Origin: a virus
Reading direction: 5' to 3' (one strand)
Virus record (IMG/VR): IMGVR_UViG_3300005828_000015
Span: 1-39,033 of that record
Length of the DNA: 39,033 nucleotides
The translations under genes and the position numbers were made by a program. Below the pieces are notes generated by a model, which was not told the DNA's origin, ran no database searches, and was given only the letters and a program-made list of their open reading frames with translations. Shown piece after piece: positions 3,363 to 39,033 of the stretch. Within the stretch, counting starts at the first letter, position 1. Every line of letters begins with the position of its first letter.

Positions 3363-3958
3363 TGGCAAAAAAGCAACAAGAGCAACAAGAAGAACAGGAA
3401 AGCACAGACAAGGAAGAGTCTAAGTTTGTCCCAGTTGATGCTTATAATTCGCTTCAAGCAAAGGCAAGTTCAGAGGCACAAGCAAGAAAAGAACTTGAGG
3501 CGAGACTTGCTCAACTCGAAGCTGATCGGAAAGCAAATGAGGAGGAGGAACTCAGACAGCGCCAAGAGTTCGAAAAGCTCTGGAAAAAGGAAAAGGAGGA
3601 GAAAGAGGCTCTTGCTAAAAGATTTCAACAAAACGACCAACTTTATAAGGACTCAATAAAAAAGAGCCACTTAAAAGAGGCACTTGGCGGAAAAATAAAG
3701 GACCAATATTTAGATTTTGCTGATATTTCAAAAATTGAGCTTGACGAAAGGGGTCTTCCTACGGTAGAATCATTAAAAATGGTCGAGGAGAAGTTTAGGG
3801 AGGAGCATAGCCAGTTGATTCCTAAGTCTTCAGGGCCCGACCCAGGGGACATCCCTCCTGGTGTTGGTCCAGGGAAACCGGACCGAAACTTGGAAAGTGC
3901 AATGACGAGCCGAGAGGCTTTTTACGAGTTAATAAAACCAATTCTAACCAAAAAATAG
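3362..3958 (+). CDS. Scaffolding protein (compositional and positional call)
   Basis: The 198-aa protein is E/K/Q-rich and coiled-coil-like (QQEQQEEQES..., EARLAQLEADRKANEEEELRQRQEFEKLWKKEKEEKE). It lies directly upstream of the capsid gene. Confidence 0.6.
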   Translation: MAKKQQEQQEEQESTDKEESKFVPVDAYNSLQAKASSEAQARKELEARLAQLEADRKANEEEELRQRQEFEKLWKKEKEEKEALAKRFQQNDQLYKDSIKKSHLKEALGGKIKDQYLDFADISKIELDERGLPTVESLKMVEEKFREEHSQLIPKSSGPDPGDIPPGVGPGKPDRNLESAMTSREAFYELIKPILTKK

Positions 3959-5758: not shown

Positions 5759-6519
5759 GTGATTATGATAGTTCACTACCAATAAGAACAGAGGCAGACG
5801 TTGACGAAAGAGTCCAGGTAAAGATTGTAGACGCAACGGATCCAAACATACAACAGGAGGTTGATTCAGATGGAAACTCCCATGTAGAGGCTCATGGAAA
5901 CGACCCCGGAGGACTTGATAGAGCGCTTAGAACGTCAGAACTTGGTCACGCATCAATGGACGGGGAATATCACGCATCAAACAACACAGACCCATCAAAC
6001 ATAGGGATACTTGCCCATGTGAGAAACGCATCGCCCGCCGACTCACAACAAACCGAGAGATTGACGTCGGTTGAGAATGTCGCTGGTGATACAAGAAGCC
6101 TTGATGTATCTCTCCATGACGAAGCCGGAGAACCGTATTCACAAACAAATCCACTTCCGGTCGCATTTGCTGAATCTGAGGGTGATGAGATCGCTAACTA
6201 CCAAACAAGCGCAGCGGTGGCGTCAGATGCCTCTGTTGACCATGACTATACAGTGACTGCGGCGAAGACGTTCCTTGGTCGATCCGCATGGGTCAGTGGA
6301 AGTGGAAAATTAAAGGTTGAGCTTAAGTTGGAAACTGCGGCGGCGTCTGGAGTCTATAACACGGTTTTTGTTGGGTTCAACTCAACCGGAAACCCGAATG
6401 TTTCGTTAGACATTGGAACACTAAAGCAAGTAACAGGAGCAAAGGTACGGATTTCAATAACAAACCGGGACAATCAGGCGCAGGACTTATATTCAACGCT
6501 TTCGGGCATTGAGCGGTAA
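5755..6519 (+). CDS. Hypothetical virion-module protein (254 aa)
   Basis: An ATGA overlap couples it to the upstream gene. The protein is acidic, and its N-terminal motif VKIVD...EVDSDG resembles one in the next gene. Confidence 0.5.
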   Translation: MSDYDSSLPIRTEADVDERVQVKIVDATDPNIQQEVDSDGNSHVEAHGNDPGGLDRALRTSELGHASMDGEYHASNNTDPSNIGILAHVRNASPADSQQTERLTSVENVAGDTRSLDVSLHDEAGEPYSQTNPLPVAFAESEGDEIANYQTSAAVASDASVDHDYTVTAAKTFLGRSAWVSGSGKLKVELKLETAAASGVYNTVFVGFNSTGNPNVSLDIGTLKQVTGAKVRISITNRDNQAQDLYSTLSGIER

Positions 6520-6524
6520 TAAAA

Positions 6525-7619
6525 ATGGCCGATATAGACGAGAAAAAGCAATCAGAAACGGTGCGGATTGTTGGTGGTGACGAGGAGTATGCGGTTGACG
6601 TCATATTGGATGACGGGATTAAAAAACTCGCAGCACTCGCCGACGTTACAGTTAACAGTCTGCGCGGCTTCGACCCAATAGCCGACTCCTGGTTCTATAT
6701 CGGTTCAGAGATTGATGACGATGGAACAGTTGGAACTGCTGGTGACACAATTAGAGTTCAGATTGCGGCTGGCTCAGACCAAGCGCTGTATCCCGCAATT
6801 GACGTGACGTACACATTGACTGCCGGAGATGCAGCAAATGATGAAGACGCACTTGCGACTAATGTTGCTGCTTACCTGAATGCCGACGTGACGTTTTCTG
6901 ATCTATGGAGAGCACAGAAAGTTTCAGGAAACGGTTGCGTGTACATCACGGCGAAGAAACCAGGCGGACACTACGAAAGACCAAACGCCGGAGATTTCAT
7001 GGTAACAACAACAGGAACAGTTACCGTCACTCCTGCGTTTGGAAACCTTATTCGAAGACAAAAGGCAACGTCGCTTGCTCGTGATCCATCTGATCCTCGA
7101 CAGGGTATTCTAGGAATTCAGGGATCTGTTGTTCAAACCGAAGGAGATGTTACAAGTCGATTTCAAGAAGTTTTTCCAGAACTAAGAGTTAACGGAAGTG
7201 TGACTCCCGTTGATTTCACGGTTTCGGCAGATCAAACCCAAGTTAAATTTATCACATCTGTCGTTTTTTCTGGTCGAGCAAATGGAATAAAATTTGGGCA
7301 GTTTTTATCAAGTTCTTCACTAACAAACGGGATTCAAATAACATTTAAATCAAATGATTTCATGGCGGAAAGGGAACCGATAAAAACAACGGACGACCTT
7401 CTGGATTTTCACGCAGAAGACCCAGACAATTTTGCTGTGTTTATTCAGGCAGGAGGTGATAAGTTCACGGCTGTCTTAGAGTTTAAATCGCCGCTGGAGC
7501 TTAGACCGCAGGGTGAATTTGCTGCCGACGATTATATAACAATTTCTATAAGAGACAATTTGACGTCCGGGACTTCACAGCTTAGAGCAATCGTTTCGGG
7601 CTTCAATAGGGAGTATTAA
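6525..7619 (+). CDS. Hypothetical virion-module protein (364 aa)
   Basis: This is a long uninterrupted ORF in operon context. Its N-terminal VRIVGGDEEYAVDVILDDG resembles the N-terminus of the previous product. Confidence 0.5.
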   Translation: MADIDEKKQSETVRIVGGDEEYAVDVILDDGIKKLAALADVTVNSLRGFDPIADSWFYIGSEIDDDGTVGTAGDTIRVQIAAGSDQALYPAIDVTYTLTAGDAANDEDALATNVAAYLNADVTFSDLWRAQKVSGNGCVYITAKKPGGHYERPNAGDFMVTTTGTVTVTPAFGNLIRRQKATSLARDPSDPRQGILGIQGSVVQTEGDVTSRFQEVFPELRVNGSVTPVDFTVSADQTQVKFITSVVFSGRANGIKFGQFLSSSSLTNGIQITFKSNDFMAEREPIKTTDDLLDFHAEDPDNFAVFIQAGGDKFTAVLEFKSPLELRPQGEFAADDYITISIRDNLTSGTSQLRAIVSGFNREY

Positions 7620-11646: not shown

Positions 11647-12093
11647 ATGCTCTGGGCACTACCAACATGGCTTGAGTGCATATTCCGATATTCATACATG
11701 ATTAGCGAGGTTTCTTTGATTGAATATGTTGAGATTGTTGCACACTACAACAGGTCCGCAAATGGGCCCAGGGTGGACACAAGGATAAACGGTTCGAGGT
11801 ATTCAGGCGAACAATTGAAGGCCTTAAAGGAGCAGATGGGAAAGGACAAGATGCGATCTCTTAACCTAATTATTGATGATCCAGACCGGTTTGTTTGTCA
11901 TAGATTTAGTTATTACTTTGAACTATATAGTGCATTTCAAAAAGGAATATTGCCTTATAAAGGAGCATTGGTTGACCAGCCGAACAAAATTATAGAGATA
12001 TTTAACATTTTTGCGATGCTTGACCTAGAGCGTCAAGAAAAACACATAAAAGAAATGGAACGGAGCAAGAGAAGTGGCAAACGTCGAAATTAA
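11647..12093 (+). CDS. Tail assembly chaperone extension (lambda T-like), probably expressed as a fusion with 11258..11644 by -1 frameshift
   Basis: The ORF is in the -1 frame relative to the G-like ORF and starts 2 codons after the slip site. There is no SD within 15 nt of its ATG. Its end overlaps the tape measure start. Confidence 0.65.
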   Translation: MLWALPTWLECIFRYSYMISEVSLIEYVEIVAHYNRSANGPRVDTRINGSRYSGEQLKALKEQMGKDKMRSLNLIIDDPDRFVCHRFSYYFELYSAFQKGILPYKGALVDQPNKIIEIFNIFAMLDLERQEKHIKEMERSKRSGKRRN

Positions 12094-14146
12094 AATTAAG
12101 TTTGTTGATGGAGCAGCAGCGGCGTCAGCGAACAAGTTTAAGGGAGAAGTTGAGGGTCTAAACAAGAGCGTTAAAAACTTAAACGTGAACTTAAGCTCAA
12201 CAAGCAGCTTTTTAAAGAATTTTGCCGCTAATGTTGCCTCTGATGCTGTTGGTGCGTTAACCAGAAGTATTATCGGGTTTGGTAAAGGGTCGGTTGAGGC
12301 AATAAAAAGTATCGAAACAATAAACACACAATTTGAAGTTCTAACGGGATCGGCAGCCAAGGCGGGCGATCTAGTAAAGGACTTAACTGATTTTGCTGCA
12401 AGAACACCATTCCAATTACAGGGCATTTCGGATGCGGCATCACGACTTCTTTCGTTTGGTTTTTCTGTTGAAGAGGTCAAGGATCGGATGCAGGATCTCG
12501 GTGATGTTGCGGCTGCGTCGAACTCAGACCTTGGTGAGGTTGCTCTGATTTTTGGGCAAGTTAGGGCTGCCGGAAAGCTAACGGGGGAGAGACTGCTTCA
12601 GTTACAAGAACGAGCGATCCCGATAGGCCCAGCACTGGCAAAAAGTTTGGGGGTTGCTGAGAGCGCGGTAAGAGACCTAGTTACAAAGGGAGTTGTAAGT
12701 TTTGATATATTTGAGGATGCGTTCAGGTCACTTAACGAAGAGGGCGGAATTGCCTTCGGCGGAATGGAAAAACAGTCAAAGACACTTGCTGGACGACTGA
12801 GCACGCTTGATGACAGTATAACACTTTTGCAAGCAAGCGTAGGCTCTGATTTGGCTCCCGCATTTAAGGCCGGCGCCAGTGCGTTAACTGCGTTTATAGA
12901 GTCCATACAGAATGACAAAGGGATTAGGGCATTTATTGTTGACATAGCCGACAGCATTCCGGCAGCGTTTCGCGCGGTTTCTCAAAGTCTTATTTTTGTT
13001 AACGACTCTTTTCAAAATACCAGACAAGTTTTAAATTCACTTCGTGCGGCATTCAATGCAACAGCATCTGGCGCCATAGGCGCAGCAATAGCTTTAAACG
13101 AAGCCGAAATTGCAACAAAGGCGTTTCTTGGTATAAATACAAAAAACCTTGAAAAACAAAACGCGGCACTTCAGGAACTTCGTGACACGTTTGATGAGGT
13201 TGGTGTTGAGGCAATTGAATCAAATAACAAGATAGAAAAGAGTCAACAAAAGGTTGAGGAGTTTGTTAGTAAGTCAACAGGAAATTTAATTAAAACATAT
13301 AATGACGAGAGGGCGGCACTAAAGGGTGTTGCTGAAGAGTCAGAGGATTCCGCCCAAAAACAAATTGATGTTGAAACAAAAAAGAGAGACATATTAACCC
13401 TTCTCCGTGAGAGTGACAAAATTGCTCGGGACGAGGCGGTTGCTGAAGCCGATGCTTTTGCGGAGGCCCAGGCAAGTAAGGAGTTTGCGTTTTTAGTTGA
13501 GAACCTTGGGGAGCAGGAGGCCGCTCGTGTAGCAGCACAAGCAAAAAGACTTGAAAATGAAGGAAAGACAAACGAAGCTTTAAATGCGCTTGGTGAGGCA
13601 AGGATAAAGGCAATTGAAGAACAGAATAAAATCAAGAAGAAACACGACGAACAAGCTCTAAGTGACCAGCGACGCTTTTTATCTACCGCATCGACATTAC
13701 AACAATCAAGTAACAAAGCTCTAAACGCGATAGGAAAGGCGGCGGCTATCACACAGGTTGCGATAGACACAGAGGCGGCGATTTCATCGGCATTTGCCTT
13801 TGGGACCAGGATTGGAGGTCCTACAGTTGGGTTCACGTTCGCCAGTATCGCTGCGGCGGCTCAGGCAGCGACGGCGGCCCGGATCGCAGGAATAAGCTTT
13901 GAAGATGGCGGCATTGTCCCAGGAAACTCATTTAGTGGGGACAACGTCGTTGCGAGGGTCAATTCCGGTGAGATGATACTAAATAGACAACAGCAGGCAC
14001 AACTTTTTGAACAGGCAAACGGAGCGGCCTCCGGGAGCAGACAAGAAATTGTCGTAAACACGACAGTAAACCTGGATGGTGAGGTTGTGGGAAGGTCCGT
14101 TAGTCGTCAGGTTGCAAATGGTCTCAAACTTGGAGAAGTTGTATGA
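12074..14146 (+). CDS. Tail tape measure protein
   Basis: The 690-aa protein is Ala-rich and helical. It contains the core-like segment LGDVAAASNSDLGEVALIFGQVRAAGKLTGERLLQLQERAIP and the C-terminal GGIVPGNSFSGDNVVARVNSGEMILNRQQQ. It follows the chaperone pair. Confidence 0.85.
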   Translation: MANVEIKIKFVDGAAAASANKFKGEVEGLNKSVKNLNVNLSSTSSFLKNFAANVASDAVGALTRSIIGFGKGSVEAIKSIETINTQFEVLTGSAAKAGDLVKDLTDFAARTPFQLQGISDAASRLLSFGFSVEEVKDRMQDLGDVAAASNSDLGEVALIFGQVRAAGKLTGERLLQLQERAIPIGPALAKSLGVAESAVRDLVTKGVVSFDIFEDAFRSLNEEGGIAFGGMEKQSKTLAGRLSTLDDSITLLQASVGSDLAPAFKAGASALTAFIESIQNDKGIRAFIVDIADSIPAAFRAVSQSLIFVNDSFQNTRQVLNSLRAAFNATASGAIGAAIALNEAEIATKAFLGINTKNLEKQNAALQELRDTFDEVGVEAIESNNKIEKSQQKVEEFVSKSTGNLIKTYNDERAALKGVAEESEDSAQKQIDVETKKRDILTLLRESDKIARDEAVAEADAFAEAQASKEFAFLVENLGEQEAARVAAQAKRLENEGKTNEALNALGEARIKAIEEQNKIKKKHDEQALSDQRRFLSTASTLQQSSNKALNAIGKAAAITQVAIDTEAAISSAFAFGTRIGGPTVGFTFASIAAAAQAATAARIAGISFEDGGIVPGNSFSGDNVVARVNSGEMILNRQQQAQLFEQANGAASGSRQEIVVNTTVNLDGEVVGRSVSRQVANGLKLGEVV

Positions 14147-21969: not shown

Positions 21970-22929
21970 TTAATACTTCCCTCTACTTAATTGCTTCATA
22001 GCAAGTTTTACGTATTCAAAAACATCCTCACATTCTTCTTCAGAGTATTGATTCTCATTTCCTATTTGCCTGTAGTTCTTCTCAAAATCTTTAAGAGAAT
22101 CCCAAGTGTGACAGCCTATGCTGATGGCTGCAGCAGTTACCGTAATTGGGTGCCTGTGAAAGGAAATGGAGACGTAGTCTTTAGTTGTTTTGATGTTTGA
22201 AGAACCAGAAACCAAAGCATCACCATAAACCCAAGCATCACCATAAACCCAAGCATCACCATAAACCCAAGCATCACCATAAACCAAAGCATCACCAGAA
22301 ACCCAAGCATCACCATAAACCCAAGCATCACCATAAACCCGAGCATTATCATAAACCTTAGCATTATCATAAACCTGAGCCTTACCATAAACCCAAGCGT
22401 TATCATAAACCCAAGCATCACCATAAACCCGAGCATTATCAGAAACCCTAGCATTACCATAAACCTTAGCATCACCAGAAACCCTAGCATCACCAAAAAC
22501 CATAGCATTACCAGAAACCCTAGCATCACCAAAAACCATAGCATTACCAGAAACCCAAGCGATATTATAAACCCTAGCATTACCATAAACCTTAGCATCA
22601 CCAGAAACCCTAGCGATATTATAAACCCTAGCATTACCATAAACCCAAGCGATATTATAAACCCTAGCATTACCATAAACCTTAGCATCACCAGAAACCT
22701 TAGCATTACCATAAACCATAGCATCACCAGAAACCTTAGCATTACCATAAACCTTAGCATTACCTAAAACCATAGCATCACCGTCCTGAGATAGGTTACT
22801 CTCTGATTGAATGTAACCACCAAGATCACCTTGTTCAACTCCGTATCTTGGAATGTCTATTAAGGCTTTAATTCTATATAGTGTTATTCCGTCATATTCT
22901 ATTTTATCATCTGTTAGTTCGTATTTCAT
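21970..22929 (-). CDS. Hexapeptide-repeat (predicted left-handed beta-helix) protein of unknown function
   Basis: The 319-aa protein has a 49-aa N-terminal domain (ITLYRIKAL...GDLGGYIQSESNLSQD). About 33 consecutive hexads of the form G-[ND]-A-x-V-[YSF] follow. The C-terminal 70-aa domain contains ISIGCHTW. Confidence 0.8.
   Translation of the reverse strand: MKYELTDDKIEYDGITLYRIKALIDIPRYGVEQGDLGGYIQSESNLSQDGDAMVLGNAKVYGNAKVSGDAMVYGNAKVSGDAKVYGNARVYNIAWVYGNARVYNIARVSGDAKVYGNARVYNIAWVSGNAMVFGDARVSGNAMVFGDARVSGDAKVYGNARVSDNARVYGDAWVYDNAWVYGKAQVYDNAKVYDNARVYGDAWVYGDAWVSGDALVYGDAWVYGDAWVYGDAWVYGDALVSGSSNIKTTKDYVSISFHRHPITVTAAAISIGCHTWDSLKDFEKNYRQIGNENQYSEEECEDVFEYVKLAMKQLSRGKY
22189..22782 (-). 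repeat. In-frame 18-nt-periodic tandem repeat array (about 33 units) encoding the hexads
   Basis: Units such as accataaacccaagcatc, accagaaaccctagcatc and accataaaccttagcatt recur with few substitutions. All three frames on this strand stay open across the array. Confidence 0.9.
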
Positions 22930-23436: not shown

Positions 23437-25048
23437 TTTCTGACTCCTTAACAAAAACAAGCAAAGATTGGTCGCGTTTGCTAAATTGAGAGTATTTATT
23501 CGCTTCACGCCCTGTAATAGTGTCTTCTAATAATTTAAATCCAGTCGATGTGATCACCTTAATCCACTCATCTTTCTTCTTTTTATCTTTCTCAGTCTGA
23601 AGAGCTAGAACGCCGCCTTCAATCAAATACTCATACACATTTTTGAATACAGGAATTGTGACCTTCTCATGGAATTCAGCATATGTTTTACACTGCCACA
23701 CAACATCGCTTGTAAACCCATACTCTTCGAATTGAAAATATGGCGGACTCGTGTAGCATAGGTCGAATGTGTTGACCAACTCTGACAAAAACACCGAAGA
23801 GTCCTGATGGCGAATCTCAACTTTAGCGTCATTGATTTCGCAATCATCTATGGCCCTTTGAACATAGGGCAAGAGATAGTCGTCCATTGTGTTCTTATTT
23901 AAATCAAATCCAAGATAGTTTTTGTTATTAGCCTTTGCATATAGAGGACTTGTCCCCCATCCACAGAAGGGGTCAAACCAGTTACTACATTGAGCCACCA
24001 AGTCTTTGTTTATTTTCCAATTGCCAGCAATTCCGTACTTGTTCTTTTGAAAAACAGGCGGATGTTCAAGTCCATCTACCGGACCTAGAGCAGCGGGTAC
24101 CGTGAGCCAGTTCGAGTTTCCGTTTGAGGCGCGGCTGGCGCGGCTGGCATTGCTGACGCTGCTGGCATAGCTGGCGCGGCTGGCATTGCTGACGCTGCTG
24201 GCGCTGCTGGCATAGCTGGAGTTGCTTGCATGGCTGGCGCGGCTGGCGTGGCTGGCGTGGCACGCAATCCCCAACTTTTTGCTTGTAGAGGCCTTGGTGT
24301 AAAATCCATACAGCTCTTCGTTAACTCCGGTCAGCTCTCCCTCTTTTAATAGACGCTTTTCATTGGATTTATAAGGGTCAGTCTTTACGTGCTTTATTTT
24401 ATCAAAGAGCCATTGTCTTTCTGGCAAAGCCTTTATGTTTAAATCTTCGCACCATTGTTCTACTGTACGCTGATTCGTTCTTTGTCTAAAGATTTCATTC
24501 TTAGCCATATTCGTGCCCTCATCAAAAAGCGAAAGGGCTTTTTCCTTGTCTGGGTAGACCGAGTCTTTATTAATAAAGCGCCGAATCTTACTGCCGTCAA
24601 CCGTACGAACGATCCCATCAAAATCCATGTAACCATTTTGGCCAACGTACTTCCATGCATAAGTTGCTCGACTTGTGCAATCAAGCCAGGTTGGTTCGCT
24701 GTCCTTGTGGTAAGATTGAGAGTCGTTTCTACGGTGACGCTGTGACCAGGCGCTCAGTTGCCTGAGGACTTTAACTTTGCCGTGTAGATACCAATGGAGT
24801 TCTTCCTGTAACTTTTTACGGTTTCTGATGGCATCTATTCGCCAACCGTAATACTCCATTAGTATTAGGGCAGACAACTTTTGCTCATAAGTTGCCTCTT
24901 TAGTGATTCTACGTTTTTCAGCATAGCCGATAAGGTAATCGCACGTATTCCACCAATTCATGTTTATTATATCCCGAACTATGTAGGGTACCGATTGTTC
25001 ATCGACAGCGAAATGTTCATTTTCAAATAAAGCGTTTAGTAGTCTCAT
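23420..25048 (-). CDS. Composite DNA amino-methyltransferase (N6A/N4C type) with an unknown N-terminal domain of about 290 aa and a Ser/Ala repeat linker
   Basis: Motif I is FDPFCGWGTS and motif IV is CYTSPPYF, in the order I then IV. The ATG at 25048 overlaps the GNAT stop (ATGA); the tracked start at 25066 is TTG. Confidence 0.75.
   Translation of the reverse strand: MRLLNALFENEHFAVDEQSVPYIVRDIINMNWWNTCDYLIGYAEKRRITKEATYEQKLSALILMEYYGWRIDAIRNRKKLQEELHWYLHGKVKVLRQLSAWSQRHRRNDSQSYHKDSEPTWLDCTSRATYAWKYVGQNGYMDFDGIVRTVDGSKIRRFINKDSVYPDKEKALSLFDEGTNMAKNEIFRQRTNQRTVEQWCEDLNIKALPERQWLFDKIKHVKTDPYKSNEKRLLKEGELTGVNEELYGFYTKASTSKKLGIACHASHASRASHASNSSYASSASSVSNASRASYASSVSNASRASRASNGNSNWLTVPAALGPVDGLEHPPVFQKNKYGIAGNWKINKDLVAQCSNWFDPFCGWGTSPLYAKANNKNYLGFDLNKNTMDDYLLPYVQRAIDDCEINDAKVEIRHQDSSVFLSELVNTFDLCYTSPPYFQFEEYGFTSDVVWQCKTYAEFHEKVTIPVFKNVYEYLIEGGVLALQTEKDKKKKDEWIKVITSTGFKLLEDTITGREANKYSQFSKRDQSLLVFVKESENVKGD
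24124..24264 (-). repeat. GC-rich tandem repeat encoding (S-x-A-S)n low complexity inside the methyltransferase
   Basis: The 36-nt unit ctggcgcggctggcattgctgacgctgctggcatag at 24135..24170 repeats at 24171..24215 with a 9-nt internal duplication. The peptide is HASHASRASHASNSSYASSASSVSNASRASYASSVSNASRASRASNG. Confidence 0.85.
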
Positions 25049-34261: not shown

Positions 34262-34441
34262 ATGAAAGAAGTAAGTTATAGAATACAGCACGCAAAAGGA
34301 ACAAAGGGATACTACATAGACATTTATGTAGGCAAAAGACTTCACATAACAAAGGTTGCAACAGACACCGAATCAATGCTTGAGACTATCCGAAACCTCG
34401 AAGTGCAGTTCAGAATGATTGGACTAAAAGTTGTCGTATGA
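34262..34441 (+). CDS. Hypothetical protein (59 aa)
   Basis: The ATG at 34262 lies 5 nt after GGAGG. Confidence 0.45.
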   Translation: MKEVSYRIQHAKGTKGYYIDIYVGKRLHITKVATDTESMLETIRNLEVQFRMIGLKVVV

Positions 34442-34827
34442 AAAGCCGATGGTTGATATTTCAATACATAACGGATCTTATTCATTCCACAAGAAGGTCA
34501 ACTGTCGGATGGACCTCGGAAGCAATAGCAACCGAGATTCTTTCTATCATAGAGAGGGAGCTTCCCATGGATGGATTGTGGGATAAAACAACACTTCCTG
34601 AACTGTCCAAGGATGGCGGGAAACGGAACATATGGAGCGGAAACTATGAGGAAGACAAAAGAGCATTTGATATTAGTTTCATTGAAAGGGCTTTACAACT
34701 CAATGGCGGAAACATCTCGAAGGCAATAAGAACTTCCGGGATAAACAAGTCCTCAATGCTTAGAAAGATAAAGAAATACAAAATTGACACAGAGAAATTT
34801 AAACGGGAGAGTGCAAAGTGGTTATAA
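34438..34827 (+). CDS. DNA-binding protein with a C-terminal Fis-type helix-turn-helix
   Basis: The segment ERALQLNGGNISKAIRTSGINKSSMLRKIKKYKI matches the Fis/NtrC-family HTH pattern. Confidence 0.6.
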   Translation: MKSRWLIFQYITDLIHSTRRSTVGWTSEAIATEILSIIERELPMDGLWDKTTLPELSKDGGKRNIWSGNYEEDKRAFDISFIERALQLNGGNISKAIRTSGINKSSMLRKIKKYKIDTEKFKRESAKWL

Positions 34828-35057
34828 CAATTATAGACAAATGGGGAAATCCAACAAGAGGCGTTGCTGCCGAAAAGAACCTTCTATTTGATCCAATCAA
34901 AGATATGCACCATGTTGAAGAGTTCGAGAACATGCTTGTTAAGCTTGGTATTTCTCACTTCGTTGTGGAGTGTCGAAAAATAACAAGGCGTGGAGATGTG
35001 TTCTTGGGCTGGTCGATATGCACAGCGGAAAAGATTTACTCGGAGGCAAAACAATGA
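34818..35057 (+). CDS. Hypothetical protein (79 aa)
   Basis: The GTG start lies 6 nt after GGGAGAG. Confidence 0.45.
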   Translation: MVITIIDKWGNPTRGVAAEKNLLFDPIKDMHHVEEFENMLVKLGISHFVVECRKITRRGDVFLGWSICTAEKIYSEAKQ

Positions 35058-35299
35058 CCAAACGATTTAAGCTCATCACAGAAGTAGTAACTCTGCACCT
35101 ATACTATGAGAACAATTGCAGATTACCGCGGGAGGAGTACGTGAGGGACGCGATTGACTTATTTTATTTCGACCCATACAAATACATGGCAATAGAGCGT
35201 ACATACTCCGATTGTATTAAGCTGTGTGAGATAACCGGAGAGCGCCCAGAAACAGTCCTTGTTTATCGACCATATCTATCATGGGAAAGTGAGGTATAA
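35054..35299 (+). CDS. Hypothetical protein (81 aa)
   Basis: The ATG at 35054 follows a GGAGG SD and overlaps the upstream stop (ATGA). Confidence 0.45.
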   Translation: MTKRFKLITEVVTLHLYYENNCRLPREEYVRDAIDLFYFDPYKYMAIERTYSDCIKLCEITGERPETVLVYRPYLSWESEV

Positions 35300-35300
35300 A

Positions 35301-35483
35301 ATGAACCTGGAAGCAACCCTTCTGTATTATTTACTAAGCAGTGCATTTGTTGTTGTGTCTTTATTCTCGGTCCATCTGGTCGAACCGGAACCCCTTAAGG
35401 TTGTCGTGGCGGTGGCTGCTGCACTGTGCATGCTAATGAACATGGCGCTCATATTGATAGACATAAGGCTGTTGTTCATGTAG
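35301..35483 (+). CDS. Small two-helix membrane protein (60 aa)
   Basis: The ATG lies 6 nt after GAGG. The two hydrophobic segments are LLYYLLSSAFVVVSLFSV and VVVAVAAALCMLMNMALILI. Confidence 0.45.
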   Translation: MNLEATLLYYLLSSAFVVVSLFSVHLVEPEPLKVVVAVAAALCMLMNMALILIDIRLLFM

Positions 35484-35998
35484 TACCAAATTGAGACCCG
35501 GGATCCCCGCATCAGTGGACATTTTGTTATTAGTATGGTATGCTCAATGCATACTTTAAAGCCTTGATCATGATTGCTTAATGCTTGCACAGCCATAGAG
35601 CTGTGCGTTTGAATGCCCATAGGTGACCTTTATAAACCCTTTAAATTTGAATAAAGACCTTTGTTTGTAATGAGCATTGCTGACTGTTAGCTCACGCGAT
35701 AAGGCATTTTGTGTTGCTGTTGTGCGCACAGTATCTGTAAGTCTGCGTAAAGACTTGGCTTGGATTGGTTTTGTATAATCATAATACTCTCTCTCCCTAT
35801 GTATAACCTTTAGACAGTGACCGTGTTTGATCAGTGTCTTATTGAGGGACGTCGGCTCTACAATTTTCCCAAAGTGGAAAAATATGTTTGAACTTACCCG
35901 TGGATCCGGTGGAGTTTGTATAAAGGTGTCATTTTGGCACCATGGTAAGCAAAAAGGAATATTCCGTATTCCAATACTGAATTTTTTGCTTAAAGGAC

Positions 35999-36027
35999 TT
36001 GACAAGATTTTTTATGGTCAGTATAAT
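35999..36027 (+). promoter_or_regulatory. Perfect consensus sigma70-type promoter
   Basis: TTGACA lies at 35999..36004 and TATAAT at 36022..36027, separated by a 17-nt spacer. An A/T-rich upstream stretch precedes them, along with the 10-bp palindrome GGAATATTCC at 35956..35965. Confidence 0.7.
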
Positions 36028-36033
36028 AGTATT

Positions 36034-36383
36034 TTAAGACCTTTACAACGGAGTGAGCTTTTCTTCGAAAGCTCAACACATCCGTTATGGATTGCCGGCT
36101 ATTATATAAGGATACCTTTATTTTCCCTATACAGCCAACTGCCGGCAACAATTGATCCACTGACAGTCAACTGTACATACGCTGGACGCACAAACGCCCT
36201 CAGACGCACCACAAAGGCGTTTGGATTGGCCTTTTGCTTGCAGTTGCCATCATGTACGCCTTGTTGCTCTCTGCCCCCCTCTGATTGCTCAAGGCCGCAC
36301 TGATAGCCCGGTAGTGTACGTTGGCACTGTCTACCGGGCCGTCAGTCATCTTAATTCTAAACCAAGACCATAGCGAGGTTAGT
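36034..36383 (+). ncRNA. Predicted structured 5' leader or ncRNA of about 350 nt
   Basis: Four extended hairpins were read directly: 36047..36086, 36088..36159, 36191..36223 and 36299..36346. No credible ORF is present. Its class is unknown. Confidence 0.35.
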
Positions 36384-36998
36384 ATGAAATTCTTTATTGC
36401 GATGCTTATGATGTTTGTGACTCCAGGCCACGGGGCCGAGATACTGGACACAGACCTTTTTGTGTTCCGCAAACTGGTTGCTCCGAGAGCAAACAAAGTC
36501 CATGTAATAATAGCATACTCGACAGGAAACAAGAACTGGAGGAAGGAGCTGGCGGAGCTAAGGAAAAGGGTTTATTATATTCAATCAAGGTTAAAGAACA
36601 GAGACATAGAGTACCACCAAATTGACTTTATTGAATACACTCGTTACATGTCAGGACAAGGAAAGGTACTACCAATGGAGGCAAGGATAACATGTGGATT
36701 TGGCCAAACCGAGATCCTTTCATTTGGTCCTGATATTTCAAAGCGGCAGTTGAACCTTGTTGTTAGGATTCTTGATGCTGTTGAGCGTCGGGGGAAGCTC
36801 CGAGAAATTAACGACAAGTCTAAAAAGAAATACTCAGTGATGCACCTAGCTCCTTATCCGATCGAGCATAGATACCAACAGAGAACCCAAGGAATAAATC
36901 TCTTTGAACTTCAATTGTATAAATTGGAGTTGATGTATTTAGACTCGACTTCACGCTCAGAGTCCATCGCTTCTTATTTTGGTCGTATCGTTGCTTAG
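36384..36998 (+). CDS. Secreted protein of unknown function (moron-like cargo)
   Basis: The ATG lies 5 nt after GAGG. The N-terminus MKFFIAMLMMFVTPGHG/AEIL looks like a signal peptide. The 3' 179 nt overlap a convergent ORF. Confidence 0.5.
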   Translation: MKFFIAMLMMFVTPGHGAEILDTDLFVFRKLVAPRANKVHVIIAYSTGNKNWRKELAELRKRVYYIQSRLKNRDIEYHQIDFIEYTRYMSGQGKVLPMEARITCGFGQTEILSFGPDISKRQLNLVVRILDAVERRGKLREINDKSKKKYSVMHLAPYPIEHRYQQRTQGINLFELQLYKLELMYLDSTSRSESIASYFGRIVA

Positions 36999-37194
36999 TT
37001 GTGTTTTTTGAACTTGTTGTTATTTTTCTTTTTATGACTTCTCCGTTGGGCTTTGATATAACCTCTGTGGTTACTGTTGTTGAGTCCGTTTTGGATTCGC
37101 TAAAAGTTGGTTTACTTTTATTAAGGTTGTTGTAAATGCTTGTGGATAAAAAAATAACAAAAAAGAAAATAATATAATTAATCTTTCTTTTCAT
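36820..37194 (-). CDS. N-terminally anchored protein with an outer-membrane beta-signal-like C-terminus (spanin candidate)
   Basis: The N-terminus is MKRK followed by the hydrophobic INYIIFFFVIFLSTSIY. An S/T/K-rich linker follows. The C-terminal strands alternate in polarity and end in LGASLSISF. The protein has no Cys, so it is not a lipoprotein. Confidence 0.5.
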   Translation of the reverse strand: MKRKINYIIFFFVIFLSTSIYNNLNKSKPTFSESKTDSTTVTTEVISKPNGEVIKRKITTSSKNTTKQRYDQNKKRWTLSVKSSLNTSTPIYTIEVQRDLFLGFSVGIYARSDKELGASLSISF

Positions 37195-37522
37195 TTGTCA
37201 GCTCCAGGTAGTAGTCGAGCTCCATCGCGACCCATATCTTTTCCCTATTTTTTGTGAAAAATACAACAGGTCGAAATGATGCCGCATTATGTATTGCTTG
37301 TTTTATTGCTCCCCATATATTGAGCCTCTCGGTATTTTTGCACTCCGGGGAGATAGGGTATTTTTTTCGTGCAAGAGGGCTAAGTAATAGGTCTTCTCCG
37401 GAAGAACCCATTGGTGTTGATCTTATGTCGTCGGGTTCCAGGTCCGGAGCATTCTTTAGAAGGGAGTCACGGACGTTTTTTTGTAGTCGTCTCCCTTTGG
37501 CTTTCGCGCTTGATGTTTTCAT
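37178..37522 (-). CDS. PD-(D/E)XK nuclease, Hjc-like Holliday junction resolvase
   Basis: The pattern AKGRRLQKNV...GSSGEDLLL...ISPECKNTERLNIWGAIKQA...RPVVFF parallels the archaeal Hjc-type D...E-x-K core. Confidence 0.45.
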   Translation of the reverse strand: MKTSSAKAKGRRLQKNVRDSLLKNAPDLEPDDIRSTPMGSSGEDLLLSPLARKKYPISPECKNTERLNIWGAIKQAIHNAASFRPVVFFTKNREKIWVAMELDYYLELTNEKKD

Positions 37523-37680
37523 TTTTTTGCTCCATCAAACATATTTGCGCCAAAAAAGGCAGCAAGTATCGCTGTCGTGTATTTGAGCCAATCGGATCCC
37601 TCAACCAGGCCCATCTTGAGCGCGACCATAGACAAAATTAGATATAAAAAGCAGACCATTGTTTTTCTGAGTCCTATCAT
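37519..37680 (-). CDS. Unlisted holin-like protein (53 aa, two hydrophobic helices)
   Basis: I translated it as MIGLRKTMVCFLYLILSMVALKMGLVEGSDWLKYTTAILAAFFGANMFDGAKK. It has ATGA overlaps with both the amidase stop and the next gene's start. Confidence 0.55.
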   Translation of the reverse strand: MIGLRKTMVCFLYLILSMVALKMGLVEGSDWLKYTTAILAAFFGANMFDGAKK

Positions 37681-38081
37681 TTTTCTGATACCTCTCTTCT
37701 TAGTTTTTCCATATCAAGATTTGGACAAGTCTTTTTATTGTCATATTCGAAATGTCCCATTACTTTCGATTTGTCAAGAGAAAATTTCTCAAGCAAGCTT
37801 ACGATGAGACCAACAAGTGCCATATATTGCGCGTCCGTTGGCTTGTCTCTTCCAACCCAGCAAACACCAATAGAGTCCGCGTTTTGTCCGCGCGTATGCG
37901 CTCCGACAACGTCGACACTACGACCTATTTGTATTTGAGCCGACCTCGTTATGACAAAGTGGTATCCGATATCAGACCATCCATTGCCGTCGACATGCCA
38001 TCGACGAATTTCATCAACACCAATATCACGAAAATCCGGACTATCGGAGCAATGGACTATGATTTTATTGATTTTTCTCAT
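37677..38081 (-). CDS. N-acetylmuramoyl-L-alanine amidase (T7 lysozyme / PGRP type) endolysin
   Basis: Motifs are IIVHCSDS, GWSDIGYHFVI and GHFEYDNKKTCPN, which supply the Zn-ligand-type His/His/Cys. The ATG at 38081 follows AGAGG. Confidence 0.8.
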   Translation of the reverse strand: MRKINKIIVHCSDSPDFRDIGVDEIRRWHVDGNGWSDIGYHFVITRSAQIQIGRSVDVVGAHTRGQNADSIGVCWVGRDKPTDAQYMALVGLIVSLLEKFSLDKSKVMGHFEYDNKKTCPNLDMEKLRREVSEK

Positions 38082-38132
38082 AAATACCTCTATGGTGATT
38101 ATATACTGATTAACTTGTTTAGTCAATTTTTG

Positions 38133-38161
38133 TTGACTTTATTGACAATGTAGGTTAAAAT
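38133..38161 (+). promoter_or_regulatory. Sigma70-like promoter for the packaging and structural operon
   Basis: TTGACT lies at 38133..38138 and TAAAAT at 38156..38161, separated by a 17-nt spacer. It sits 20 nt upstream of the terS ATG, which has a GGGAGG SD. Confidence 0.55.
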
Positions 38162-38181: not shown

Positions 38182-38586
38182 ATGGCCAGAATAAGCAAGA
38201 GAGAGGAGCTTCTTCGTGAAACAAAGTGTCTTGAAAATATAGGAGAAGGACTTACTAAGGATCAAAACATAAATGACCTGACTAAGACTTTTGGTGTGAC
38301 TCACGACACGGCTGAACAGATTTATTTTCAGACAACAAGGAAGGTTGCTGGACTCCGAGAGGCAAGCCTAGAAGAACTAAAGGCCCAGGTTCTGTGCCAG
38401 ATGGATATTTTATACAAGAAGTCAGTTGCTCATAAATCATATAAAACTGCGCTGGACATTTTGATGTCGAAGGTTAAAGTTTCTGGTTTGGACGAAAAAG
38501 AAAAGAGTAATGCCGACAATAAAGGAAGGTCGGAACTACCAAAGATCATTGAAGTTCGGGAAAAAGACTTCACAAAAAAAGGATAA
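38182..38586 (+). CDS. terS: Terminase small subunit (positional call)
   Basis: This 134-aa ORF lies immediately upstream of terL. It has an HTH-like N-terminal half (INDLTKTFGVTHDTAEQIY). Confidence 0.55.
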   Translation: MARISKREELLRETKCLENIGEGLTKDQNINDLTKTFGVTHDTAEQIYFQTTRKVAGLREASLEELKAQVLCQMDILYKKSVAHKSYKTALDILMSKVKVSGLDEKEKSNADNKGRSELPKIIEVREKDFTKKG

Positions 38587-38590
38587 ATGC

Positions 38591-39033
38591 TTGGAGATAG
38601 GACTTCACAAAAATCAACTAACCTTTTATAAGTCAGATAGTCGTTACACTGTCTATTCCGGCGGGATCGGCTCCGGGAAGACATTTGTTGGGGCTTTCTG
38701 GGCCATTTCGATGATCTTGGCCTACCCCAAATCAAAGGGAGTTATTACTGCAAACACACATTCACAATTAAGGAAGTCAACACTTCCCCTGGTTTTTGAA
38801 ATCCTTGACAAGTTTGGAATAAAATACAGATATTTGGCAAATCAAGGACTACTGAAGGTTGGGAATGTTGATGTTTACTGCTCCTCAATGGAAAACTATG
38901 ACAATATCAGGGGAATAAACGCAGGATGGGCATGGTCGGACGAGTGTGCATTTTATGACGAGGCGGCATTCCTTGTCCTCATAGGACGAATAAGGGACAA
39001 GAAAGCGCCATGCCAATGGAAGGGAACAACAAC
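38591..39033 (+). CDS. terL: Terminase large subunit, N-terminal part (runs off the window end and continues at base 121 through the repeat)
   Basis: The Walker A motif is GGIGSGKT, and Walker B-like WAWSDE is also present. The TTG at 38591 lies 7 nt after AAGGA. An alternative in-frame ATG occurs at 38510. Confidence 0.8.
   Translation, partial: MEIGLHKNQLTFYKSDSRYTVYSGGIGSGKTFVGAFWAISMILAYPKSKGVITANTHSQLRKSTLPLVFEILDKFGIKYRYLANQGLLKVGNVDVYCSSMENYDNIRGINAGWAWSDECAFYDEAAFLVLIGRIRDKKAPCQWKGTT
38914..39033. repeat. Direct terminal repeat, copy 2 (identical to 1..120)
   Basis: It matches 1..120 base for base. Confidence 0.95.

Follow-up and report, generated by a model that had tools for sequence, protein, structure and literature searches.

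We analyzed a 39,033-nt stretch of viral DNA (IMG/VR virus record IMGVR_UViG_3300005828_000015; the whole stretch is referred to as the window) with regard to positions 35,999 to 36,383, where a perfect consensus promoter had been predicted to drive a heavily structured untranslated RNA of about 350 nt. We favor the interpretation, the most economical in its assumptions, that a strong host-type promoter gives rise to a lineage-specific mRNA with a structured, cis-acting 5′ leader and a moron-like gene for a secreted protein, and we assign this reading a probability of about 0.4. The features observed are genuine and exceed chance expectation statistically. None of the specific readings as a regulatory RNA is supported, and the element belongs to no known family. 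We would class it as a lineage-specific instance of something already familiar, an early phage promoter followed by a long, structured untranslated region.

The promoter and the region without genes in which it lies are as follows.

35999 to 36027, plus strand: sigma-70-type promoter TTGACA-17 nt-TATAAT, with the -35 hexamer at 35999-36004 and the -10 hexamer at 36022-36027.
About 35484 to 36383: control region of about 0.9 kb without open reading frames (ORFs), of which the leader described earlier is the right-hand 40%.

The consensus promoter was present exactly where it had been claimed, and a search of both strands of the 39-kb window found no other sigma-70 match of 12/12. By our own estimate (78,000 positions x 3 spacings / 4^12), about 0.01 to 0.02 such matches are expected by chance per genome. 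An A/T-rich tract resembling an UP element (35979-35998) abuts the -35 hexamer upstream, the promoter is located in an AT-rich patch of 26 to 28% GC, and the transcript is predicted to start near 36034-36036. No plus-strand promoter of at least 9/12 was found between 36028 and 36383, and the gene at 36384-36998 therefore depends on the 12/12 promoter. Consensus promoters are widespread in the clade of related phages described below, including before the small terminase gene, which supports the view that these are real promoters for the host polymerase.

The earlier claim that the stretch holds no credible ORF was borne out, and the ORF-free stretch proved larger than claimed. Stop-free runs in 35300-36600 had codon log-likelihoods of -0.111 to 0.027, within the null for random sequence of equal composition (mean, -0.079; 95th percentile, 0.031), and in six frames all ORFs of the gap scored below each of 29 confident training genes. 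These ORFs had no Pfam or PHROG matches, and tblastx of the gap against the loci fetched from all relatives revealed no translated similarity. A full HMMER scan with a 158-aa gap ORF against 1.84 billion representatives returned two matches only, both of them translated tandem or satellite repeats. Nowhere in the gap does a start codon with a good ribosome-binding site open a plausible small gene. Two of the stop-free runs in the gap are unusually long (160 and 147 codons, against a null 95th percentile of 133). A frameshifted minus-strand pseudogene tiling the gap was considered and rejected, as no piece of it scored above the null.

The predicted transcript contains the following structures.

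36047 to 36086, plus strand: hairpin 1 (H1), beginning about 12 nt past the predicted start, with an inner 8-bp stem (36054-61/36068-75); -15.9 kcal/mol, with z scores of -5.0 (plus strand) and -4.5 (minus strand).
36088 to 36159, plus strand: hairpin 2 (H2), with a GC-rich 8-bp stem (36092-99/36141-48) and a 41-nt interior that contains ACCTTTA; -18.7 kcal/mol and z -2.9 on the plus strand, -26.0 kcal/mol and z -3.6 on the minus strand, where G-U pairs are added.
36191 to 36223, plus strand: hairpin 3 (H3), with an 8-bp stem and a 17-nt loop.
36299 to 36346, plus strand: hairpin 4 (H4), an irregular helix of about 18 bp that is interrupted by internal loops and includes a 9-bp stem (36306-14/36331-39); -26.5 kcal/mol and z -3.9 on the plus strand, -29.9 kcal/mol and z -5.6 on the minus strand.
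36155 to 36330: GC-rich island with C in excess over G, in the leader's 3′ two-thirds; 52 to 60% GC compared with 42% for the genome.

Folding energies were compared with those of dinucleotide-preserving shuffles (100 for the 350-nt transcript). The predicted 350-nt transcript folded at -107.4 kcal/mol, compared with -88.8 ± 5.2 kcal/mol for the shuffles (z -3.57), and none of the 100 shuffles was as good. Among the 155 windows of 350 nt in a genome scan, the leader ranked third on the plus strand and second on the minus strand. Its position was less extreme in 150-nt windows, with a plus-strand z of about -2.5 to -2.7 (genome mean, -0.2; standard deviation, 1.2). The 350 nt contain five perfect stems of at least 7 bp, compared with about 1.5 expected. 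All four hairpins of the original prediction were recovered at their coordinates; H1, H2, and H4 beat their shuffles, while H3 was no better than chance. H1 and H2 are one base apart, and H4 ends 37 nt upstream of the ATG at 36384. The GACGCAC repeat does not flank H3 as had been described: one copy (36185-36191) adjoins the 5′ arm of H3, and the other (36203-36209) is contained in its loop. The comparison with shuffled controls, which had been named as the decisive computation, thus placed the leader below its shuffles but was neither strand-specific nor unique to this site in the genome.

In the mechanism we propose, host sigma-70 RNA polymerase would read the 12/12 promoter and begin a rightward transcript near 36035. 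The first ~350 nt would form an untranslated, hairpin-rich leader, followed by the secreted protein encoded at 36384-36998, and the leader would act in cis on its own mRNA. H1, near the 5′ end, and the irregular H4 may protect or process the message, and Rho may gain access to the untranslated RNA through the C-rich stretch between the hairpins. Control of the promoter itself probably takes place on the DNA, where two palindromes between -79 and -58 and the ACCTTTA motif located at +5 are candidate sites. Together, promoter, leader, and gene would constitute a moron-like accessory cassette in the hypervariable early region of a tailed phage.

A comparable arrangement is found in phage T7, in which the RNase III site R0.3 lies about 35 nt before gene 0.3, after an untranslated early leader of about 400 nt. 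The T7/T3 early leader and the element in the window share a strong sigma-70 promoter, several hundred untranslated nucleotides, and an irregular hairpin about 35 to 37 nt before the first start codon; by analogy, the position of H4, 37 nt before the AUG, would mirror that of R0.3. In contrast to T7/T3, there is one promoter here instead of three (A1 to A3), no sequence similarity, and no RNA polymerase of the phage's own. RNase III may cleave H4, whose helix of about 18 bp with internal loops compares with about 20 bp in a T7-type site.

We then considered known RNA classes and modes of regulation. In agreement with the earlier remark that no RNA family was recognizable, a scan of the whole window with Rfam release 15 (4227 models) gave no match at the gathering thresholds. 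With E values of up to 10, 35300-36500 gave four weak matches (13 to 24 bits, compared with gathering thresholds of 45 to 90), among which only NsiR9 (13.5 bits) overlaps the leader; the DNA of the relatives had no Rfam matches either. No intrinsic terminator was found on the plus strand of the leader (36028-36383), where H4 is followed by CAUCUUAAUUCU. The Shine-Dalgarno sequence at 36376-36379 had no dominant pairing partner (pair probability, at most 0.3), and its unpaired probability did not rise with temperature (0.37, 0.39, 0.37, and 0.31 at 20, 30, 37, and 42°C). Because the leader lacks a terminator and the Shine-Dalgarno sequence is unsequestered and temperature insensitive, the riboswitch, thermosensor, and classical attenuator readings are unsupported.

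More specifically, the suggestion of a riboswitch-like or thermosensor leader found no support, given an unsequestered Shine-Dalgarno sequence, the lack of a response between 20 and 42°C, and the lack of an expression platform. The results argue against an RNA thermometer of the ROSE or fourU type, as the Shine-Dalgarno sequence is neither sequestered nor opened with temperature. They argue against a riboswitch as well: there is no known aptamer, the sequence occurs in one phage only, and there is neither a terminator/antiterminator pair nor Shine-Dalgarno sequestration. The alternative proposal of an attenuator or a stand-alone noncoding RNA (ncRNA) fared no better in view of the uninterrupted path from promoter to gene, and a terminator-type attenuator lacks support since no GC-rich hairpin with a U-run lies inside the leader. 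Rho-dependent attenuation of the leader may occur, given a C/G ratio across the leader of 1.05 to 2.15 (78-nt windows; for the plus strand of the genome, the median is 0.93 and the 95th percentile 2.2). A trans-acting antisense RNA was also rejected, as no significant complementarity between the leader and other parts of the genome was found.

These results bear on the idea that the leader is a regulatory RNA in the strict sense, that is, a ligand or temperature sensor, a processive antiterminator resembling HK022 put, or a stand-alone or trans-acting ncRNA. We consider this quite improbable. The strong folding z scores and the lack of an ORF are compatible with it, as is the placement of H1 and H2, which begin about 12 nt after the start one base apart and recall the two stem-loops of put. 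The put RNA binds the zinc-binding domain of the polymerase β′ subunit and suppresses downstream terminators. The put RNAs, of about 70 nt in all, consist of two stem-loops just downstream of the early promoter PL (PMC9378689). In HK022, as in the window, two adjacent stem-loops directly follow an early sigma-70 promoter. The geometric match, which is all that was compared, is loose, as H1 plus H2 span 113 nt instead of about 70 nt. Furthermore, neither downstream terminators nor a long operon in need of read-through are present, and processive antitermination would have no obvious use before a single short gene. Against a regulatory RNA of any of these types stand the lack of an Rfam family even at E values of up to 10, the lack of a terminator in or after the leader that would define a small RNA or an attenuator, the unsequestered, temperature-unresponsive Shine-Dalgarno sequence, and the lack of complementarity to other phage genes. 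An aptamer confined to one genome among billions of sequences would also be unlikely.

The gene that the favored mRNA would express is the following.

36384 to 36998, plus strand: downstream gene of 204 aa with an N-terminal signal peptide, Shine-Dalgarno sequence GAGG at 36376-36379 and ATG at 36384.

The original prediction of a moron-like secreted-protein gene agrees with what we found, a lineage-specific gene with a signal peptide that is absent from the relatives. Its codon log-likelihood was 0.114 (nonoverlapping part). Among 5.8 billion proteins, the sole match of the 204-aa protein was itself, and it had no Pfam or PHROG match; a helix-turn-helix (HTH) protein encoded upstream was likewise unique in the same database. 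The absence of the cassette from relatives and databases fits a recently acquired or fast-evolving accessory cassette. The last 179 nt of the gene overlap a convergent membrane-protein gene (36820-37194), which is conserved in a related phage (L003). Transcripts from the 12/12 promoter would run antisense into the membrane-protein and RusA-like genes (36820-37522), which form the distal end of the minus-strand cassette on the lysis side, and would continue as far as the terminator-like sites at 37431-37576.

Morons are self-contained units of promoter and gene that have been inserted between conserved genes in, for example, lambdoid and HK97-like phages. The cassette in the window resembles them in having its own promoter, a gene absent from relatives, a deviant composition, a position between conserved modules, and a secreted accessory product. 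It differs in its 350-nt structured leader, which is unusually long, and at its 3′ end, where the terminator that a moron would have directly after the gene is replaced by the convergent overlap.

The genomic setting is as follows. The first and last 120 bases of the window are an exact direct repeat (1-120 = 38914-39033) and the large terminase gene stays in frame across the junction, which indicates a complete, circularly assembled genome of about 38.9 kb. A second JGI contig (L164, sample 3300005825) is 100% identical to the window and therefore offers no variation for comparison. The structural genes lie on the plus strand, beginning at about 38.2 kb, crossing the junction, and ending at 21.5 kb. 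On the minus strand, the interval from 22.0 to 33.8 kb holds the replication module, with genes for a family-A polymerase, its exonuclease subunit, a primase-helicase, an exonuclease, and a DHH phosphoesterase; the family-A DNA polymerase of this phage is split. Next come a short early cassette on the plus strand (34262-35483), which contains the HTH protein, of the Fis type (HTH_8, 34438-34827), then the ORF-free stretch, and then the single plus-strand gene 36384-36998, which converges on a minus-strand cassette (36820-38126) for the membrane protein, a RusA-like nuclease, a small 53-aa ORF, and an amidase endolysin. Elsewhere the genome is densely packed, with genes abutting. No tRNA or transfer-messenger RNA (tmRNA) was found in the genome. 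Back-to-back near-consensus promoters (minus strand, TTGACT-17-TATAAT; plus strand, TTGACT-17-TAAAAT) lie at 38098-38161, between the amidase gene and the gene 38182-38586; their leaders are very short compared to the 356-nt leader described here. The gene 38182-38586, just upstream of the large terminase gene, presumably encodes the small terminase.

Relatives were found by a large terminase (TerL) search of the 5.8 billion proteins, which revealed a sizeable clade with contigs of about 37 to 42 kb. The closest TerL other than the window's own was 73% identical (on a 1.8-kb contig), followed by proteins of 66, 64, 62, and 56% identity. In INPHARED, no phage terminase was more than about 32% identical to that of the window. 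The early regions compared were those of L166, L168, and L169, together with L003 and L004 from IMG/VR; the nearest usable DNA came from phages with a TerL identity of 62 to 66%. Other routes to homologous leader DNA were unproductive: there was none of use in INPHARED phages or PLSDB plasmids, searches of IMG/VR with the exact promoter string, the downstream protein, or the pattern of a conserved noncoding block (block A, see below) gave nothing useful, JGI metagenomes searched by TerL gave nothing, and looking up the downstream protein yielded no contig. A looser block A pattern gave 120 matches in JGI metagenomes, and none of the loci fetched was a real homologue by nhmmer. As queries for relatives, the amidase and the RusA-like nuclease retrieved mostly unrelated phages, and the DHH phosphoesterase retrieved three distant loci only.

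What did recur in the relatives was the architecture, a perfect promoter followed by 0.3 to 1.1 kb of ORF-free, over-structured, and fast-diverging DNA. In L003, a 12/12 promoter is followed by 309 nt without a gene and then by a second promoter and a gene. In L168, a 12/12 promoter with an extended -10 TG stands at the start of a 1283-nt gap; from this promoter it is 695 nt to the first ATG-started ORF of at least 45 aa and about 1.1 kb to the first called gene. In L166, the gap measures 881 nt. The ORF-free stretches of the relatives beat their shuffles, with z scores of -3.2, -2.9, -3.0, and -2.3.

The conserved DNA of the early region and the motifs around the promoter are listed here.

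35772 to 35900: block A, noncoding, about 130 nt, with the motifs TAATCAT..CTCTC, ACnGTGACCGTGT, GGCT(C/G)TAC, and CAAAGTGGAAAAAT.
35626, 35657, 35806, 35921 (minus strand), 36039 (promoter +5), and 36114 (interior of H2): ACCTTT(A/G) cluster.
35946 to 35992: hairpin whose 10-bp stem (TAAGCAAAAA/TTTTTGCTTA) is perfect and whose end lies 6 nt upstream of the -35 hexamer; z -2.5 on the plus strand and -2.0 on the minus strand.
35956 to 35965 and 35966 to 35977: adjacent perfect palindromes GGAATATTCC and GTATTCCAATAC inside that hairpin, at about -79 to -58.
36020 to 36048, minus strand: weak promoter-like site TTGTAA-17-TATACT (9/12), overlapping the plus-strand -10 hexamer and directed towards block A.

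Using blastn and MAFFT, we found block A kept in L166 (3048-3184) and L168 (6329-6465), where the flanking early genes are not conserved; it is the only conserved DNA in the early regions of these three related phages. The nhmmer E values were 4.5e-38 for L166, 6.1e-29 for L168, 4.1e-40 for L293, and 1e-09 for L294, the latter two being contigs found by a pattern scan of GTDB genomes, with a partial homologue in L294. As an RNA, the block A consensus folds weakly on both strands (-3.9 and -3.4 kcal/mol), and one base pair of the hairpin formed by the L294 copy covaries across the four sequences. Block A may represent an origin, a site for a regulator, or what is left of a terminator. A sigma-54 promoter within it was rejected because the GG-N10-GC rule is unmet, and a cos or pac site is unlikely, as block A lies at a variable distance of 2.3 to 6.4 kb from terS.

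Of the 14 ACCTTTR copies in the genome, 6 fall within about 500 nt (35626-36120). ACCTTTA is the most enriched 7-mer of the gap, which holds 5 of its 7 copies (p = 8e-7). The ACCTTT(A/G) cluster looks like an operator or iteron set for a DNA-binding protein, and the palindromes GGAATATTCC and GTATTCCAATAC are candidate regulator sites. No regular iterons or tandem repeats were found in the region. Taken together, block A, the ACCTTTA cluster, the palindromes, and the GC contrast point to a composite cis-acting control region rather than a simple leader.

Such a region could also be a transcription-activated replication origin of the lactococcal c2 type, in which a structured noncoding transcript, here from the strongest promoter of the phage, opens or primes the origin, and block A and the ACCTTTA repeats would be DNA-level origin elements. 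This is the main rival of the favored reading, and we regard it as rather unlikely. In c2-type phages (Ceduovirus), the origin is the ORF-free sequence after the first early promoter, PE1, and is the part of the genome most variable among relatives; its noncoding PE1-T transcript appears essential, as do the length and structure of that transcript (PMC7150918). The window resembles this system in its ORF-free, structured stretch after a perfect promoter, with a layout that is kept among relatives while the sequence is hypervariable, and L003 and L168 even carry a second, gene-proximal promoter reminiscent of PE2. The phage encodes a primase-helicase, a polymerase, and an exonuclease, and no initiator protein was recognizable among the phage proteins scanned (no PHROG or Pfam match). 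Block A as the sole conserved early-region DNA, the motif cluster, a DnaA-box-like TTTTCCACT within block A, and the promoter patch of 26 to 28% GC fit an origin as well.

However, the window has no second promoter to close the stretch before the gene, as PE2 does in a c2-type origin, and a normal ribosome-binding site follows, where such an origin has none after PE1; the transcript is thus also an mRNA. Its RNA is C-rich and G-poor, which disfavors stable R-loops. Moreover, block A lies upstream of the promoter here and downstream of it in L168, so that the geometry is not conserved, and the motif spacing is irregular. The two groups of phages are unrelated. A broader version of this idea, which we find similarly doubtful, holds that throughout this clade of ~39-kb PolA/primase-helicase phages the long, fast-evolving, structured transcripts after consensus promoters are functional ncRNAs instead of simple leaders, for example, RNAs that activate or prime an origin together with block A and without an initiator, the 350-nt RNA of the window being one lineage-specific version.

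Several further results weigh against the favored mRNA with its cis-acting leader. The minus strand of the leader folds better than the plus strand (-125.6 kcal/mol; z -4.33), so that the stems may be palindromes at the level of the DNA or act in a leftward RNA. Coding windows with lower z scores than the leader begin at 24534 and 12034 on the plus strand and at 22284 on the minus strand; because two plus-strand coding windows exceed the leader, a z score of its size alone is no proof of function. H3 is at chance (z of -0.64 and -0.78 on the plus and minus strands, respectively; 54 of 200 shuffles were as stable). A length of 350 nt is long for a simple leader, and the conserved block, the repeated motifs, and the AT-rich promoter patch give the wider region origin-like traits. 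No terminator directly follows the 204-aa gene, and the cassette is closed instead by the convergent 179-nt gene overlap; the nearest plus-strand terminator-like sites (37431-37450 and 37558-37576) lie past the convergent genes. Finally, the leader, the downstream gene, and the upstream cassette are absent from all fetched relatives, and no conservation was obtained; absence from relatives this distant is not a fair refutation. The energy test was passed, yet it singles out neither strand and does not prove function, because the reverse complement and the coding windows score lower.

The z scores of the three coding windows (24534-24883 and 12034-12383 on the plus strand and 22284-22633 on the minus strand) were -5.6, -5.4, and -6.3, respectively. 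The 22-kb window falls in a repeat-rich gene (21970-22929), whose product was judged to be a repeat protein by multiple internal tblastn matches.

The better folding of the minus strand, overall and for H2 and H4, would fit the possibility that the minus strand or the duplex DNA is what functions, with a leftward transcript from the 36048-36020 site into block A or with protein-binding or cruciform sites. Minus-strand promoters aimed at block A are conserved in L166 (10/12) and L168 (11/12), where they are stronger than the 9/12 site of the window, and ACAGTGACCGT in block A pairs, with G-U wobble, only if read on the minus strand. We nevertheless judge this very improbable. H1 to H4 all lie to the right of the minus-strand promoter-like site and hence outside its transcript, the best minus-strand promoters further right reach only 9/12 and lie inside the downstream gene, and the perfect promoter points rightwards.

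The same energies also bear on another alternative, that the promoter is real and the hairpins are functionless. The leader would then be a foreign or decaying spacer, either a remnant brought in with the acquired gene or a degraded gene, whose GC-rich composition and few chance palindromes yield a low folding energy. The compositional island, the lack of anything conserved in relatives or databases, the equally good folding of both strands, H3 at chance, and coding windows with similar or lower z scores are all in line with this possibility, and the stop-free runs of 160 and 147 codons could be relics of a dead gene. Still, we think it unlikely, since not one of the 100 dinucleotide shuffles folds as well and three hairpins are individually significant. 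In addition, 350 nt without a use would seldom survive in so compact a phage genome, three relatives of unrelated sequence show the over-structured layout again, and the stretch has no translated similarity to any gene.

If the favored reading of a plain cis-acting leader is true, the element would be another case of a phage accessory gene with a strong host-type promoter and stabilizing hairpins, which is unsurprising, and it would be useful as a portable strong promoter and leader part. The pattern across the clade is more interesting: in several of these uncultured phages, a consensus promoter and 0.3 to 1.1 kb of structured ORF-free DNA are kept while the sequence turns over completely. 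This kept layout, together with a single conserved 130-nt noncoding block, is the signature of a cis-acting control or origin region. Such a region would offer a handle on the start of replication or on early/late switching in a clade that has no cultured member in INPHARED.

A few observations concern block A and the long gaps in other sequences. The GTDB pattern scan located the L166 version of block A in L293 (JAGLON010000056.1, 4958-5094), a contig binned as Candidatus Zixiibacteriota. Its block A score equals that of L166 (130.4 bits), and the roughly 180 nt compared around the block match as well; L293 is probably the same phage as L166, mis-binned, or else a hint at the host. A partial block A is present in a Bdellovibrionia metagenome-assembled genome (L294, 4016-4087), beside an integrase and an IS481-like transposase, and this copy forms a 12-pair hairpin followed by a T-run, resembling an intrinsic terminator. 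In L168, the plus-strand perfect promoter (5867-5896) faces the conserved 11/12 minus-strand promoter (6718-6746), with about 800 nt of ORF-free DNA, block A included, between them, and L166 retains the minus-strand promoter (3409-3437). The facing promoters of L168 would therefore define divergent operons with long overlapping antisense 5′ leaders, an excludon-like arrangement. Lastly, both long gaps of L003 contain, on the minus strand (5719-5695 and 7509-7484), AACGCGACA, a 4-bp hairpin, and ATTAT. The hairpin stem is flipped between the two copies (GTGC-TTC-GCAC versus GCAC-GAAA-GTGC), a compensatory change, and the repeated motif suggests a small conserved RNA or DNA hairpin.

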